Shown here piece by piece: positions 450 to 56,697 of a DNA stretch of 59,127 nt. Source of the stretch: an uncultured Candidatus Saccharibacteria bacterium (lineage in GTDB: Bacteria; Patescibacteriota; Dojkabacteria; GCA-002793355); contig CAZGEO010000002.1 of the NCBI GenBank assembly GCA_964525295.1, positions 324,551 to 383,677 on the forward strand, written 5' to 3'. The translations under genes were made by a program, and so were the position numbers. Below the pieces are notes generated by a model. The model worked only from the letters and a program-made list of their open reading frames with translations, did no database searches and was not told the origin of the DNA. Position 1 is the stretch's first letter; every line of letters starts with the position of its first letter.

Positions 450-460
450 TGGGTTTGGTG

Positions 461-596
461 TGGGGTTCGAAACTCAAAGGAAACAACAATAATTTATTGT
501 TGAGAGAAGAGTGGGACTGTGCCAAATAACCTCAAAAAAATCGAGGTGCAATTTCGGTGATGAATCAACGTAAGACAAATGTTATGAGATTCCTGA
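461..596 (+). ncRNA. tRNA-associated structured motif, copy 1 (Thr locus)
   Basis: Collinear with copies at 14346-14506 and 54453-54583; 528-568 is 36/41 identical to 54519-54559. Helices 461-467/528-534, 484-490/496-502 and 554-557/593-596. Confidence 0.7.
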
Positions 597-51317: not shown

Positions 51318-53174
51318 ATGGAAGTTATCAAGAAGTTATCACCAGAAGTCGTTAACCAAATTGCTGCCGGAGAAGTTGTTGAACGTCCAGCATCAGTATT
51401 AAAGGAATTAATGGAAAATGCAATCGATGCTGGAGCTACTGTAGTAGACGTCTTTCTTGAGCAGGGCGGGATAACAAAGATCGAAGTCCGCGATAATGGG
51501 AAGGGTATTGCGAAAGAAGACCTTGCGAATGCATTTGAACGATATGCAACGAGTAAACTACATAAGATTGAAGATCTTCAAGAACTTCTCACCTATGGAT
51601 TTCGTGGAGAAGCACTTGCTGCAATAGCCTCAGTTAGTAAAGTTACCCTAACATCAAAACAGAAAGAATCCGACCCTAATCAAATCCATGCAACCGCTGG
51701 GCAACTTTCAGAAATTCAGCCGACTTCACGATCAAATGGTACAACAATAACAATTCAAGAGCTATTCTATAATGTTCCAGCACGCCAGAAATTCCTAAAA
51801 TCGGAAGATACTGAATATAAGTACCTTTTAGAAGTTTTTCAAGCGTTCGCACTACTCAATGGAAAAATCCATTTTTCACTAACTCATAATGATAAATTGA
51901 TTTATACGCTCCCCGCGACTCAAACTGAAAAATTCCCAATAGAACGAGTATCGCAAATATTTAAAGTCACCAAAGAATTACTTTTACCAGTTTCGCACGA
52001 AGAATATGGAATCTCTATTCAAGGAGTTGCATTACATCCAAAAGCGCTAGGAATGCAAGCACGGTTTACTAAGTTATTCGTTAATAACCGACCTATTGAC
52101 GACAAAGGTCTCATGAAGGCCATCCAGCAAGGTGTTGCAGGATACATACCAGATACTTACAAAGCATCTGGTATTTTTGGAATTACTGTCGCTTCAGACC
52201 AGGTCGATGTAAACGTTCACCCTCGAAAATTAGAGGTAAAATTTATTAATCCGTTTAGAATATTTAGTGCACTAACTCATGCTATCAAGGCGACTTACGC
52301 AGGTTTAGTTGATGTCGAAATGAGAAATAGAGCAGAGCAAGCTGTTTCATTTACTCCACAAAATGCACCGTATGTCTCACCGGCTGCGACGCCTAGATTT
52401 GAACAATCTACTGATAAATGGCAACGCAAAGAAAATAACGCGTACGACAGACTCCGAAACACTCAACAGCCATTATTTTTTTCTGACACATCACAGGCAT
52501 TTATTCCGCCAGAAAGAAACGACGCGAAGTCATCAGAAATTCCAGATTTTGTTAAAGAACAAGCTCGTGATTCGCTTTCAGAAGCTACAATTACCCCAAT
52601 ATTAGGACGTTACATCACGGTAGCCTTTATGGATGAAGTATGGGTTGTCGATCAACACGCAGCTGCAGAAAGAATACGTTACGAAAAATTCAAAAATTCT
52701 TATTTGGAAGGCACTCTATTAGAACAACAGCCTCTTCTTGCACCAATTTCGATTCACTTGTCTGAACAAGAAGCAACAATTGCAAAGAAACATGAATCGC
52801 TATTCATGCGTTTAGGTTATTCCATCTCATTTGTTGAAAATTCATTGCTTATTCACGCAATACCAACGTTCATGCAAAATGCTGACATTGAGAATATGCT
52901 CCGAGATTCGATTGCTGAATTAGTCGAACATGACGACCTCTTTTTAGAGCCAATAATTGGCGATTTTCAAACAAATAAAGATTTGAGCCTCATTATTGCC
53001 ACCATGGCCTGCCACAATTCAGTACGTATGAATCAGCGAATTTCGCCACAAGAGGCGAGAAGCATTATGACCGATTTACTGAAGTGCCAGATTCCTTTTG
53101 CCTGCCCTCATGGCAGAAGAGTCGTATGGAGGCTACAAAAAGAAGAAATTGACAAACAATTCATGCGAACTTAG
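51318..53174 (+). CDS. mutL: DNA mismatch repair endonuclease MutL
   Basis: NQIAAGEVVERP, ATSK, GFRGEALA, VDVNVHP.K, endonuclease motif DQHAAAERIRYE, ACH and CPHGR. Confidence 0.97.
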   Translation: MEVIKKLSPEVVNQIAAGEVVERPASVLKELMENAIDAGATVVDVFLEQGGITKIEVRDNGKGIAKEDLANAFERYATSKLHKIEDLQELLTYGFRGEALAAIASVSKVTLTSKQKESDPNQIHATAGQLSEIQPTSRSNGTTITIQELFYNVPARQKFLKSEDTEYKYLLEVFQAFALLNGKIHFSLTHNDKLIYTLPATQTEKFPIERVSQIFKVTKELLLPVSHEEYGISIQGVALHPKALGMQARFTKLFVNNRPIDDKGLMKAIQQGVAGYIPDTYKASGIFGITVASDQVDVNVHPRKLEVKFINPFRIFSALTHAIKATYAGLVDVEMRNRAEQAVSFTPQNAPYVSPAATPRFEQSTDKWQRKENNAYDRLRNTQQPLFFSDTSQAFIPPERNDAKSSEIPDFVKEQARDSLSEATITPILGRYITVAFMDEVWVVDQHAAAERIRYEKFKNSYLEGTLLEQQPLLAPISIHLSEQEATIAKKHESLFMRLGYSISFVENSLLIHAIPTFMQNADIENMLRDSIAELVEHDDLFLEPIIGDFQTNKDLSLIIATMACHNSVRMNQRISPQEARSIMTDLLKCQIPFACPHGRRVVWRLQKEEIDKQFMRT

Positions 53175-54202
53175 CCGTTCACTTTCTGTTTGTGCTTGAC
53201 CGGTACCAATACTACACCAATCGAATTGCCTGCAAATCTACCTGCTGCAATGTCAGGATTTCCTTTTCTATCATTCGAGAGGAAGTTGATTGCATTTTGG
53301 GCCAAAATACTGAATTCAGTCAATTCAAGATTTTCATTCCTCACTCTAGTTTCTAGATATTTTTGAAATAATTGCCCTAGATCATTTATTATGTCGAAAG
53401 TTGTAACAGGCAAGTGGAGTGCTTTTGCCGTTGCAAGAAGAACTGCATTAATATTACCTGTTTCCATTTTCTGTGTTAATCTAAATTGCAAGTCGCTTGA
53501 TTCTAGAATTTGATCGAGTAATTGGGGAGTGCGTGCTTCAGAAACATTAAGATTATCATATCTTACAAAATCAATCTCACTGCTTACGACATAAGGAATT
53601 ACGTGTAATGAATGATTATGGAGTAATTCACCAATTTCGCGAATTCTTTGACGCGTAACTGTTCTGTCATATTTTTTCACATGATCACAATCAATTACGT
53701 AATACAATAATAATTGTTTTAGTAAGTCAGGTGAAACTTCAATACTATAATCCCTACGATTGAGTTGTTCTTGCACAATGACAGAAATTGCAAATGCCAC
53801 GTTATTTAAAACCTCGTTGGTGACTCCATCATAATTTACATTGCCCGACAATGCTTCTAAATAGGGAAGTCTACAAGCTTCTTCAATTTTCTTACAGGCA
53901 AAATAAGTTCTCATATATTTCGATAAATCTGGTTCTAGAGGCATTGTTGGTAAAGGATAAGAAATCTGGTTAAAATTGATTTTATCGATTTCTGCTTCAA
54001 TCATGGCAAATTCTTCTGGCATTGTTTTTTCAAATTTAATAACTTGATCTCTCAGATACTTTTCTGTTGTAGTATTTTTTCTTTCTTGATTTGAGCTTTT
54101 GGGCACTAGACTAATTTCTGCCTGAATATTTGTTATTGTCATAATTGCATAAAAGAATATAAGTCCTATATTATGCTTTAGTTTTCTGGAAAATCTTGAC
54201 AT
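53171..54202 (-). CDS. Hypothetical protein
   Basis: 343-aa ORF convergent with mutL; start is uncertain (54202 or 54142). Confidence 0.65.
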   Translation of the reverse strand: MSRFSRKLKHNIGLIFFYAIMTITNIQAEISLVPKSSNQERKNTTTEKYLRDQVIKFEKTMPEEFAMIEAEIDKINFNQISYPLPTMPLEPDLSKYMRTYFACKKIEEACRLPYLEALSGNVNYDGVTNEVLNNVAFAISVIVQEQLNRRDYSIEVSPDLLKQLLLYYVIDCDHVKKYDRTVTRQRIREIGELLHNHSLHVIPYVVSSEIDFVRYDNLNVSEARTPQLLDQILESSDLQFRLTQKMETGNINAVLLATAKALHLPVTTFDIINDLGQLFQKYLETRVRNENLELTEFSILAQNAINFLSNDRKGNPDIAAGRFAGNSIGVVLVPVKHKQKVNG

Positions 54203-54262
54203 AGCAATAATTTATCTCAAAATCAAACCTACGATGAATTTTGGCGTTCAAAATCGTTGCTC

Positions 54263-54291
54263 TTGAAAACTACTCTTAACTTTGCGATAAT
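54263..54291 (+). promoter_or_regulatory. Sigma70 promoter of tRNA-Leu
   Basis: TTGAAA 54263-54268, 17 nt, extended TGC-GATAAT 54283-54291. Confidence 0.7.
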
Positions 54292-54299
54292 TCACTTAT

Positions 54300-54382
54300 G
54301 CCGGGGTGGTGGAATGGCAGACACGCTACCTTGAGGTGGTAGTGCTCGAAAGGGTGTGGAGGTTCGACTCCTCTCCTCGGCA
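54300..54382 (+). tRNA. tRNA-Leu(GAG), no encoded CCA
   Basis: Acceptor GCCGGGG/CCTCGGC, anticodon arm CTACC-TTGAGGT-GGTAG, long variable arm, T-loop TTCGACT. Confidence 0.96.
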
Positions 54383-54614
54383 TTTTAGAAAAGATTTCAT
54401 AAACTTCTGATTAACAAGTAACTTATGGAATGTTTTCTAAATACCAAAATGTGAGGAGTTGAAACTTGAGGAAAACGTAAGTGACCTTACGGTTGACGAG
54501 AGCGGGGCTGCGCCTAACAACCTCTGAAAATTCGATGTGCAATTTCAGTGATGAATCAATGAAAGAAGATGAATCCTGAAATTGGTGGGTTGCCGACTCC
54601 TCTCCTCGGCATTT
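54383..54614 (+). mobile_element. Miniature tRNA-Leu-associated element bounded by a tRNA 3' duplication
   Basis: The 21-bp CGACTCCTCTCCTCGGCATTT at 54365-54385 is repeated at 54594-54614, 229 bp away, and encloses the structured motif. Confidence 0.7.
54453..54583 (+). ncRNA. tRNA-associated structured motif, copy 3 (Leu locus)
   Basis: Helices GAGG..TT 54453-60/AACCTC 54519-24, CGTAAG 54476-81/CTTACG 54486-91 and AATTTCAG 54541-48/CTGAAATT 54576-83. Confidence 0.7.
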
Positions 54615-54750
54615 CTTATTTTGTTTTTCCTTCACATTTTTTTTCTCAACTATCATTCGGTTTTACGCTCTTACAAGTCAATCCTTGGTGTTGCGCACAA
54701 AACAATAAAAATGAGTGAAGCGAAAACAAGAAGAAGAGAAGTTAAGTTGT

Positions 54751-54777
54751 GATGAGAGCGGGGCTACTCCTAACATC
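54751..54777 (+). repeat. Partial extra copy of the motif core
   Basis: GATGAGAGCGGGGCTACTCCTAACATC is 23/27 identical to 54495-54521. Confidence 0.7.
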
Positions 54778-54784
54778 AGGAACT

Positions 54785-55714
54785 TTAATAGTCGTCGTCT
54801 ACTGGGAATTCCCGGTGTTTAGCATGTCCTGATTTACCTTTTTTCTTTGTTATTTTTACATCTTGTGGGGTATTCCTCTCTTTGCCTTCTGAAGCTAGTA
54901 ATTGCTGCACTTGATCTTTAATCACGGGTTCGAAACTTGGTTTGGCCTGCAAAGCTTTTAGGAATGTACGAGCTTGTGAATTACCAGGATTTCTTTCTAA
55001 GAAATCTTCAAGTAAATCTACCAATTGTGGTTCAATTTGAGGATACAGTTTTTTAAAGGAGTCATCGAATGGCGCCTCAAATACATTAACAATAGACAAA
55101 ATAACTTGCTTGCCGCATCTCACAATATATGCCTGAATATTTCTAATATTCTGCGCTAATAATGAGTTGTTTTTCGAATTATTCAAATTTAATGAAAAAA
55201 TTGCCCATGACTTTCTTCGCAATTCATCGTTAAGACTCCACTCATTTTGAGGTTTTCGCCCTAAATCATTCATACCTGAAACTATCGAGCTGAGTTCACT
55301 CTCATCCAGAACTTTAGTACAAAGATCAATTGGTGTTACGGCAAAAGAAGCTGCATCATTATAATTGTTTAACGGAATATCTCTAAAAAGTGCTGCTGCA
55401 ATTGTTGCCTTTCCGCTCTCAACATCAGACTGAAACATTATCCATGCACCTTGGCGAGCTAATGATTCAAACGTGTCAAGTGCTACTCTTACTGAAGATT
55501 CATCTCCATGTTGAATTGCCTTTTTTTCTGAATTTTGTAGTTGGGAGAATACATTTGCATCATTCTTTCGTCTGATTCTAGCTATCTGTTCATCAAATGA
55601 TAAATCTCCTAATCCGATTACAAATGCAGACAATCCTTGACGTGCATTCTCAATATGCATAGCATTAATTTTTGCTTGACCAGCTTCTTTTCTAGCTGTT
55701 CTATTTCGAGTCAT
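54785..55714 (-). CDS. Hypothetical protein
   Basis: About 309 aa. Start moved to ATG 55714 (TACAAT 5 nt upstream) because the longer start overlaps the tRNA-Pro promoter. Confidence 0.7.
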   Translation of the reverse strand: MTRNRTARKEAGQAKINAMHIENARQGLSAFVIGLGDLSFDEQIARIRRKNDANVFSQLQNSEKKAIQHGDESSVRVALDTFESLARQGAWIMFQSDVESGKATIAAALFRDIPLNNYNDAASFAVTPIDLCTKVLDESELSSIVSGMNDLGRKPQNEWSLNDELRRKSWAIFSLNLNNSKNNSLLAQNIRNIQAYIVRCGKQVILSIVNVFEAPFDDSFKKLYPQIEPQLVDLLEDFLERNPGNSQARTFLKALQAKPSFEPVIKDQVQQLLASEGKERNTPQDVKITKKKGKSGHAKHREFPVDDDY

Positions 55715-55776
55715 ATTGAATTGTACTATAGGCAAGACTTTCCTGCCACAAAAAATATGATATAATTCACTCATAT

Positions 55777-55850
55777 CGGGGCGTAGTTCAGTTGGCTAGA
55801 ACGCACGGTTTGGGACCGTGAGGTCGCGAGTTCGAGTCCCGCCGCCCCGA
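55777..55850 (+). tRNA. tRNA-Pro(TGG), no encoded CCA
   Basis: Acceptor CGGGGCG/CGCCCCG, anticodon arm CACGG-TTTGGGA-CCGTG, T-loop TTCGAGT; promoter TGATATAAT at 55758-55766. Confidence 0.96.
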
Positions 55851-56697
55851 TATTTTATTTTCAAACCCTTAAAAACATTGATAACTCGATGTTATCAAAA
55901 TGTGTATCACATTGTCATCCGTTTTTCTGTCAAAAATTACAAACGATGATTTAGCTAATTGGTTGGGCATTACTTTGCGTTCGTAAAAGTTCAAATCCTG
56001 TCGTCCCCCATTTTTTTGCTATAATCAAATATGAATAAATGGAGAAAGCAATCATCTAAAATACTATTCACTCACCCGCGTATCACTTTAGTTGAAGATA
56101 CTGTCACAATTTCAAATGGTGATGAAATTAAGTATCTAAAATATCTAGAAAAAGGTAATGCTGTTACTTTAATTTGTAGAAATAAAGAAGGGTTATTCTT
56201 ACTAACAAAGGAATTCTATTATCCAATAGATGATGTAGTAATAGGATTTCCAGGTGGTGGTGTATCTGAAAATGAATCTATTGTTGATGGCGCATTAAGA
56301 GAGTTAAAAGAGGAAGCGGGTTTAGTATCTAATGATATTACGAGTCTAGGTTTTTTCACTATGAATGCAAGAAGGACATCTATGAAAAATTATGTCTATT
56401 TAATTCAAGATTTCCAACAAAGTGATATAAAAAGAGACCCTGAGGAAGATCAGTTCGAGCTAATATGGTTTTCACAGAATGAAATTCAAAAGAACATACA
56501 GGAAAGTAAAATATTTCATAGCTACACTCTTGCTGCGTGGTCGTTATATTTAGCTCATCTTAATTAATAATATTTGCTTCGGAAAGTTATAAAATTCTGG
56601 CAAAATTGCCACTTGCCTTTTAACTCGTCAAAAAGGAATAATAACTTACTCAAGAGTTCGGAAATTAGTTCGTAACGAGTCCCGCCGCCCCGATATT
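55851..56697 (+). mobile_element. tRNA-Pro-associated mini-island carrying a Nudix gene
   Basis: The 22-bp CGAGTCCCGCCGCCCCGATATT at 55833-55854 is repeated at 56676-56697, 843 bp away. Confidence 0.7.
56031..56567 (+). CDS. Nudix hydrolase (ADP-ribose pyrophosphatase-like)
   Basis: FPGGG, Nudix box ALRELKEEAGL and DPEED; TGCTATAAT 5 nt upstream of the ATG. Confidence 0.9.
   Translation: MNKWRKQSSKILFTHPRITLVEDTVTISNGDEIKYLKYLEKGNAVTLICRNKEGLFLLTKEFYYPIDDVVIGFPGGGVSENESIVDGALRELKEEAGLVSNDITSLGFFTMNARRTSMKNYVYLIQDFQQSDIKRDPEEDQFELIWFSQNEIQKNIQESKIFHSYTLAAWSLYLAHLN

Follow-up and report, generated by a model that had tools for sequence, protein, structure and literature searches.

The 843-bp segment behind the tRNA-Pro(TGG) gene of this contig appears, on balance, to be a foreign gene cassette with no integrase of its own, inserted at the end of the tRNA gene between attL and attR junctions of the serine-integrase type, and moved, now or in the past, in trans. 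The cassette belongs to a modular family with interchangeable cargo that is found behind tRNA-Pro(TGG) in Dojkabacteria, and both occupied and empty sites exist in this family. Candidate-phyla-radiation (CPR) bacteria have tiny genomes, and to our knowledge the ways in which they acquire and exchange genes are poorly understood. In the literature that could be searched, we came across no account of such elements, and the cassettes behind tRNA-Pro look like a gene-shuttling route that has not been described there. If this is true, recombinase-free cassettes of 0.6–12 kb on one tRNA end would be a concrete route of gene flow in CPR bacteria. The cargo of the Pro family ranges from housekeeping-type enzymes to restriction-modification systems.

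In the window (the whole stretch of 59,127 nucleotides that was analyzed), the segment is bounded by an exact 22-bp direct repeat, CGAGTCCCGCCGCCCCGATATT, which lies at 55833–55854 and at 56676–56697, 843 bp apart from start to start. A 19-mer out of this repeat occurs twice in the window and never in 100 shuffles, which bears out the 843-bp segment between tRNA-Pro repeats that had been predicted. The features of the locus are as follows, with related loci (L numbers) named where they share a feature:

55777–55850, plus strand: tRNA-Pro(TGG) (ARAGORN 55776–55851; Rfam 55777–55850, 64.5 bits)
55833–55854, plus strand: left repeat copy of 22 bp, consisting of the tRNA 3' end (last 18 nt) and 4 nt more
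55852–56010, plus strand: left module of about 160 nt with no gene, its length and ends conserved in L005 and L026 unit B
55878–55898, no strand assigned: inverted repeat TTGATAAC-N5-GTTATCAA, its arms invariant and its spacer variable among the window, L005 and L026 unit B
55979–56010, plus strand: GTTCGTAA, then AA, then the pseudo-tail GTTCAAATCCTGTCGTCCCCCA, as read from the sequence, with homologs in relatives
56017–56025, plus strand: extended -10 box TGCTATAAT, separated by 5 nt from the ATG (56031) and retained by the L001 ortholog
56031–56567, plus strand: Nudix hydrolase of 178 aa (Pfam NUDIX, PF00293, 1.4e-16)
56568–56667, plus strand: right module, matching the right end of L026 unit B (75% identity across 73 nt, E=4e-9)
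56668–56697, plus strand: attP-type half-site GTTC-GTAAC-G-AGTCCCGCCGCCCCGA followed by TATT, that is, the right 22-bp repeat with a 5-base shift

The 178-aa ORF is the sole credible gene between the repeat copies, and the ORF list and Pfam confirm that there is exactly one gene, a Nudix hydrolase at 56031–56567, as the original prediction had it. The segment's other ORFs of at least 40 aa are short; they overlap either the tRNA gene, or the middle part of the left module, which is not conserved, or the Nudix gene on its antisense strand. The remaining landmarks named in advance are in place as well: the gene has its own TGCTATAAT box, the inverted repeat expected near 55880–55900 is present, and the near-palindrome TGGCAAAATTGCCA stands before the end motif.

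The left module opens with ~58 conserved nt, continues with a variable centre and closes with a decayed tRNA-Pro tail. It measures 159–160 nt in each of the window, L005 and L026 unit B, with the ends and the hairpin conserved. For example, the first 160 nt 3' of the tRNA in L005 are collinear with window positions 55852–56010, with the TGATAAC-N5-GTTATCA palindrome and GTTCGTAAAAGTTCAAGTCCTGTCG at the same offsets, and the left module of L026 unit B is 90% identical to that of L005 across the first 58 nt. L001 has a truncated left module that retains the first ~38 nt. The extended stem of the inverted repeat shows one compensatory change, and the repeat is a candidate protein-binding palindrome or hairpin. 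The pseudo-tail (55989–56010) is a decayed copy of the tRNA-Pro T-loop and acceptor in tRNA register, lacking G72, and it sits just 5' of the Nudix promoter; homologs of it are found in L005, L026 unit B, L001 and a contig from X3, a peat metagenome run. The octamer GTTCGTAA precedes the pseudo-tail at 55979–55986 and abuts the right repeat at 56668–56675, and besides these two there is one further copy on the same strand across 59 kb. Viral and JGI metagenome contigs contained no exact match to the conserved left-module pattern. The left module was also considered as an antisense relic of an integrase 3' end and rejected, the short similar peptide covering the palindrome only, with stops elsewhere. 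The same goes for 55941–56010 as a decayed whole tRNA, of which only the T-loop and acceptor portion is convincing.

A second left-end type, with the hairpin AAAGCCT(T/C)ATACA..GGGCT, is seen in the first 100 nt behind tRNA-Pro in L010, L031, L011 and L026 unit A. The octamer GTTCGTAA stands at +63 in all four and additionally at +96 in L010, L031 and L011. The cargo that follows this end is unrelated from case to case (a type I restriction-modification system, a 537-aa Cys-rich secreted protein, a 1076-aa surface protein).

The right module of the window contains the terminator-like palindrome TGGCAAAATTGCCA (56598–56611; a terminator-like match in the scan) and a conserved box, AAATTGCCACTTG, at 56603–56615. 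The part that aligns with the right module of L026 unit B corresponds to window positions 56603–56675. The box is also present downstream of the X3 Nudix gene and on two further X3 contigs. These two short contigs match window positions 56602–56643, are unlike the Nudix gene upstream, and run downstream, in the sequence shown, to ...AGTCAGTTCG. Such a pattern suggests further cassettes with other cargo in the peat sample.

Exact-pattern scans for this tRNA returned about 31 tRNA-Pro(TGG) loci, 11 from genomes and 20 from metagenomes. The left module of 160 nt and a right module of ~75 nt recur behind tRNA-Pro(TGG) in other Dojkabacteria and frame other cargo there. The tRNA-Pro(TGG) gene of the window is identical in L005, L010 and L012, and the cargo Nudix is absent from all three. 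L005, which like L010 is syntenic with the window at mutL-tRNA-Leu-tRNA-Pro, has a 3.4-kb unit behind the tRNA that encodes a C5 methylase (Dcm) and a HATPase_c_3 protein. L010/L035 has a unit of ~11.7 kb with HTH, HsdM, HsdS, HsdR, AAA and PIN proteins (type I restriction-modification), and L012 has nothing foreign behind its tRNA. A further occupied site is L026, where ~4.5 kb separate tRNA-Pro from a MutT-type Nudix gene of 142 aa; in the empty sites L007 and L017, the 142-aa Nudix gene follows directly after an identical tRNA, and the flanks are 75–82% identical to those of L026. This 142-aa Nudix, which is unlike the cargo Nudix, is the native neighbour of tRNA-Pro in the three loci.

The insertion in L026 consists of two units. 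Unit A is 3.6 kb long and carries the 1076-aa surface protein. Unit B has the architecture of the window cassette: a 160-nt left module, a pseudo-tail, a single gene for a 183-aa protein with no Pfam match, and a right module. A homolog of the 183-aa gene is carried by a 627-bp cassette in L037/L038 with the same right-end formula, so that a single gene of ~183 aa is cargo twice in the family. This is alternative single-gene cargo of the kind that the original prediction proposed to look for at the tRNA-Pro(TGG) locus of related genomes. L041/L042 has a relative of the same gene behind tRNA-Pro(TGG), with the right end missing. The close clade of the 183-aa gene lies directly behind tRNA-Pro(TGG), and homologs at 52–59% identity are found in ordinary contexts.

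No recombinase gene was found in the cassette, in the delimited family members, in the 59-kb window or in ~250 kb of the relatives' loci. The scanned cargo proteins of the delimited elements, the window Nudix among them, contain no serine integrase domains (Resolvase, Recombinase and zinc ribbon) and no tyrosine recombinase; the latter is likewise absent from the window and locus frames, and no recombinase catalytic motif occurs in 384 frames of the window and loci. Among the ~31 tRNA-Pro(TGG) loci there is neither an antisense ORF abutting tRNA-Pro nor an integrase-bearing (autonomous) member of the family, and exact-pattern scans of viral contigs brought up none with the same att sites either. 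With Rfam, at gathering and permissive thresholds, only tRNAs matched. Since the cassette has no recombinase, it would move with an integrase supplied in trans or be a recently stranded derivative.

This absence can be read in another way. The cassette could be only a fossil, the remnant of a larger integrase-bearing island that shrank by internal deletions, never moved in its small form and is immobile now. We consider this unlikely, though several observations fit it: the lack of a recombinase in the vicinity, the further decay of L001 and L041/L042, which have lost the right end, and the pseudo-tails without G72. In addition, the contigs assembled from the source samples (X1, X2) show the occupied form alone and no excision joints. 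However, a compact layout with a fixed module length recurs with different single genes, and the modules reassort between elements. At its right end, L026 unit B bears a tail that belongs to a foreign type of tRNA-Pro; this implies that an array or cassette already lacking an integrase was transferred. Nor was an integrase-bearing member seen among the ~31 loci. We prefer the reading of a cassette moved in trans, now or in the past; its present mobility and its helper enzyme are putative.

In the cassette reading, the element consists of the 160-nt left module, the Nudix gene with its own promoter, and a right module of ~110 nt with a tail copy that has five extra bases. The attL junction would be the tRNA half-site joined to the left end of the element, and attR the register-shifted half-site of the element joined to the native flank, with a large serine integrase cutting at about G72-A73. 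The expected junctions would then be tRNA-Pro joined to ...AAAATTTCCCTG for the empty site, and position 56675 joined to 55855 for the circle.

The geometry of the right ends is what points to this class of enzyme. In the T-loop and acceptor 3' strand of tRNA-Pro, the attB-type half-site reads GTTC-G-AGTCCCGCCGCCCCGA. All six right ends, which come from five loci, read GTTC, then GTAAC or GTACA, then N and the tail, where the tRNAs have GTTC, N and the tail. The L005 and L010/L035 islands have in common a right module of ~170 nt and a CGCG tail variant, CGCGTCCC..., while their cargo and left ends differ; the tail copy thus travels with the element. In L026 the native tail stays with the tRNA gene, while the tail in the distal copy belongs to a foreign tRNA-Pro type. 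Both cases, the foreign type in L026 and the private variant in L005/L035, indicate that distal copies are borne by the element nearly to the end, which would put the crossover within a few bases of the end. The sole dinucleotide, and the sole identity, common to all attL/attR pairs is GA (G72-A73), L035 being paired with the tRNA of L010. The two copies in the window are identical over 22 bp, and for this reason the crossover is placed from the relatives and not from the window locus alone.

With the first crossover base (GA) as position 1, TTC lies at 17–19 in the tRNA and at 22–24 in the element. In the LI integrase structure, the zinc-ribbon-domain motif lies at 11–19 in attB and at 16–24 in attP, a shift of 5 bp (PMC3783163). 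Given a G72-A73 crossover, the +5 register at the Pro right ends would reproduce the attP/attB shift of large serine integrases, in that the distal motif is displaced by 5 bp between the attP-type and attB-type half-sites. As in the sites of Listeria A118/LI integrase (Rutherford et al. 2013, PMC3783163), the half-site of the element repeats the target, with the distal motif 5 bp outward; that all junction pairs of the Pro family have only a dinucleotide in common would also be in keeping with such sites. There are differences as well. The Pro element has no integrase or directionality factor, unlike large serine integrase elements, and it targets a tRNA gene at its 3' end, unlike the A118/LI sites. 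The Pro half-sites are identical over ~20 nt and not merely similar, and the P and B arms as a whole agree over 20–22 nt, well beyond what known serine-integrase sites need. The P' half-site is barely recognisable, the left end of the element showing only a weak half-site mirror (GAAAG at ~+21). The right-end and tail patterns had no exact match in viral contigs.

If the assignment is true, the targets of large serine integrases would extend to tRNA gene termini. The tRNA tail, with the five bases or lacking them, supplies natural, minimal pairs of attP- and attB-type half-sites on which the structural model of site discrimination can be tested directly; such pairs could also be of interest for genome-engineering work.

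A model of successive insertions into a functional tRNA, with the oldest unit most distal, was rejected. The proximal pseudo-tail could never pair with the 5' half of the window tRNA-Pro and is more diverged than the perfect distal copy, and L026 combines a foreign distal tail with a native gene tail.

A direct repeat of a tRNA 3' part that bounds an element is also the textbook footprint of tyrosine-integrase islands, and the segment could be a classical tRNA island of this class or a CIME-like derivative. In that case, the 22 bp would be the attP/attB identity with the crossover inside it, and GTTCGTAAC would be an arm or core binding site. The repeat itself, such as is seen in tycheposons, does bound the element here, and two copies identical over such a length are more in keeping with this class than with serine integrases. 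Nevertheless, we find the explanation quite improbable. No tyrosine recombinase was found in the elements, the window and the loci. The right-end copy is borne by the element to at least position 69, which would confine the crossover to the last ~4 nt of the tRNA, unlike the T-loop or anticodon regions that are usual for the class. The constant +5 register would also have no role.

The cassettes do resemble tycheposons in other ways (Hackl et al., bioRxiv 10.1101/2020.12.28.424599): the cargo is adjacent to a tRNA gene, partial tRNA copies flank it, and units are stacked. The hosts are alike in their small genomes and few other mobile elements. Tycheposons, however, carry tyrosine recombinases, whereas the Pro elements have none and would cross over at the very end of the tRNA. 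The cassettes are also like CIMEs and mobilisable genomic islands in having att sites at both ends without recombination genes (IME review, PMC5704250), a state which in CIME-like elements implies dependence on an enzyme supplied in trans. The Pro cassette has attL and attR and no recombination or transfer genes, as CIME-like elements do. Unlike in CIME-like systems, no cognate autonomous element was found for it among the ~31 loci, and its ends are modular and reassorting. The single-gene units of the Pro family (0.6–0.85 kb) are far smaller than CIMEs and mobilisable islands generally are.

One could also dispense with a dedicated recombinase altogether. Competent CPR cells could swap cassettes by homologous or homology-facilitated illegitimate recombination, using the tRNA gene and the tail copy as anchors. 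The tRNA-Pro gene is identical in four genomes, while MutL and TrmD in L005/L010 are only 53–56% identical to those of the window, and an integrase is absent throughout, all of which such exchange would accommodate. Yet the right anchor, at 18–22 bp, is very short, and conserved end modules, an invariant GTTC with 5 nt, and precise ...CCGA junctions would be unexpected. It is therefore highly doubtful that homology alone accounts for the cassettes, and an integrase acting in trans is again the preferred reading.

The Nudix enzyme would be ordinary, selected cargo, probably an ADP-ribose or NDP-sugar pyrophosphatase. The Nudix box GGVSENESIVDGALRELKEEAGL (GX5EX7REUXEEXGU) reads as intact. The protein matches the Thermus ADP-ribose pyrophosphatase 1v8i at 3e-8 and ADP-ribose pyrophosphatases in the PDB at ~1e-8; the NudE model matches at 3e-15 with 56 bits, which is below its curated cut-off of 169. 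Homologs of the protein have the N-domain of NDP-sugar hydrolases and are located in purine or sugar-nucleotide operons. A dN/dS of 0.087 between the window gene and its L001 ortholog means that the gene is under purifying selection. The original prediction called for a comparison of GC and codon usage with core genes, and the outcome was mixed: the GC content of the gene (31.6% versus 36.6±2.1%) is the lowest of 36 long ORFs, but the codon usage is ordinary, with no significant foreignness. Composition thus gives weak support to a foreign origin.

The promoter of the gene has no -35 match, which is why a generic sigma-70 scan did not list TGCTATAAT. A leaderless transcript is plausible. Among 5.8 billion sequences, the Nudix protein has one relative at 81% identity and the rest at 41% or less. 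The former is the L001 ortholog (81% aa), which lies 79 bp behind tRNA-Pro(TGG) with the same TTTTTTGCTATAAT promoter, a similar pseudo-tail and other flanking genes. The X3 copy has ~94% nucleotide identity and matches the window from 56012; it is preceded by the pseudo-tail and followed by the box AAATT(T)CCACTTG. The close orthologs (window, X3, L001) all lie behind a tRNA-Pro tail or pseudo-tail, and the distant homologs are in ordinary operons. The gene has other neighbours in L001 than in the window; for X3, the contigs do not extend far enough to reveal the neighbourhood. MutL of L005/L010 is 53–56% identical to that of the window, and the Nudix protein is 81% identical in the less similar L001.

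A vertically inherited Nudix gene, syntenic across the lineage and without the flanking duplication, would contradict the idea of a delivered cassette, and this is not what is seen. The only distant ortholog context, L001, offers no clean vertical synteny: promoter, pseudo-tail and the initial ~38 nt of the left module are kept there, but among other neighbouring genes. A convergent gene abuts the Nudix stop in L001 and accounts for the missing right repeat; without a right end, the linkage of tRNA-Pro and Nudix is partly compatible with an old vertical linkage. That the Nudix gene is an ordinary resident beside tRNA-Pro, with the second tail copy an unrelated small insertion or duplication downstream, is scarcely tenable: L001 does have tRNA-Pro and then the ortholog without a flanking repeat, another Nudix gene, of 142 aa, natively adjoins tRNA-Pro in L007, L017 and L026, and Nudix genes are common (four NUDIX-domain ORFs in the window), but relatives with an identical tRNA, L005/L010 with the same locus as well, are without the gene, L001 keeps the left-module start and pseudo-tail of the element, and the modules flanking the Nudix gene are those of elements with other cargo. 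The four NUDIX-domain ORFs are out of 51 long ORFs in the window, and Nudix genes are unusually frequent in these genomes.

The original prediction held that one tRNA-targeting route, shared with the Asp and Leu elements, can deliver single-gene cassettes, integron-like in effect. The delivery part stands, given the varied cargo at tRNA-Pro(TGG), single genes included. The shared route is not supported. A right-end motif common to the Pro, Asp and Leu elements is not borne out by the shuffle test (Pro versus Leu, p=0.36; Pro versus Asp, p=0.16), in which the end motifs of the Leu and Asp mini-elements do match each other (p<0.0005), and the register of the tail copy is +5 in the Pro family, +2 in Leu and 0 in Asp. 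What likeness the Pro left module has to the Asp and Leu elements is at most one of layout: it is gene-less and tRNA-adjacent, with a hairpin and a tail copy in tRNA register. A tRNA-Thr element is also seen in the window (450–575), with a 68-nt core that is 82% identical to the Leu element and no tRNA-Thr tail copy after it.

As for the likeness to integrons, it holds as an analogy. Like integron cassettes, the Pro cassettes include single-gene units which end on one side in a conserved recombination site, stack at a fixed chromosomal platform and bring no recombinase of their own. Unlike integron cassettes, the Pro cassette has its own TGCTATAAT promoter, and a tRNA gene end serves as its platform. 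Neither IntI nor attI nor a folded attC was found at the locus; the right end is a tRNA-tail mimic with no palindrome and no Rfam match. A more general proposal, which is speculative, is that the 3' end of tRNA-Pro(TGG) in Dojkabacteria could be a landing pad for cassettes run by a serine integrase encoded elsewhere. Genes that gain, alone or a few together, a ~25-bp register-shifted mimic of the tRNA end (GTTC, 5 bases and the tail) would then be inserted, stacked and exchanged across lineages without a recombinase of their own, which would make the system an integron counterpart based on a serine integrase.

Other tRNA-Pro loci show a tRNA-linked element of another kind. In L004 (JAYRWD010000045.1), tRNA-Pro is followed by a gene for a 99-aa GIY-YIG nuclease and then by a repeat of the tRNA 3' half; this repeat begins in the anticodon stem, and its anticodon loop is interrupted by 21 inserted nt. 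L006 and L014 have GIY-YIG ORFs just upstream of tRNA-Pro, and the one in L014 overlaps the tRNA start.

The tRNA-Pro of the window has peculiarities of its own. Its T-stem (55825–55841) is GCGAG/CCCGC, which gives an A52·C62 mismatch; the mismatched sequence is the same in four genomes (window, L005, L010, L012), and the remaining tRNA-Pro types of the family have fully paired T-stems. In L005 and L010 the gene order is mutL, tRNA-Leu(GAG), 14 nt, tRNA-Pro. Relative to these, the window has additional DNA on both sides of tRNA-Leu (53171–55775), which includes a 343-aa orphan ORF on the minus strand (53171–54202), a 229-bp mini-element with a Leu tail repeat, and a 329-aa orphan ORF on the minus strand (54785–55774) whose start is 1–2 nt from tRNA-Pro. 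A promoter-like stretch upstream of tRNA-Leu (54278–54306) recurs before tRNA-Pro (55753–55781) with 76% identity.
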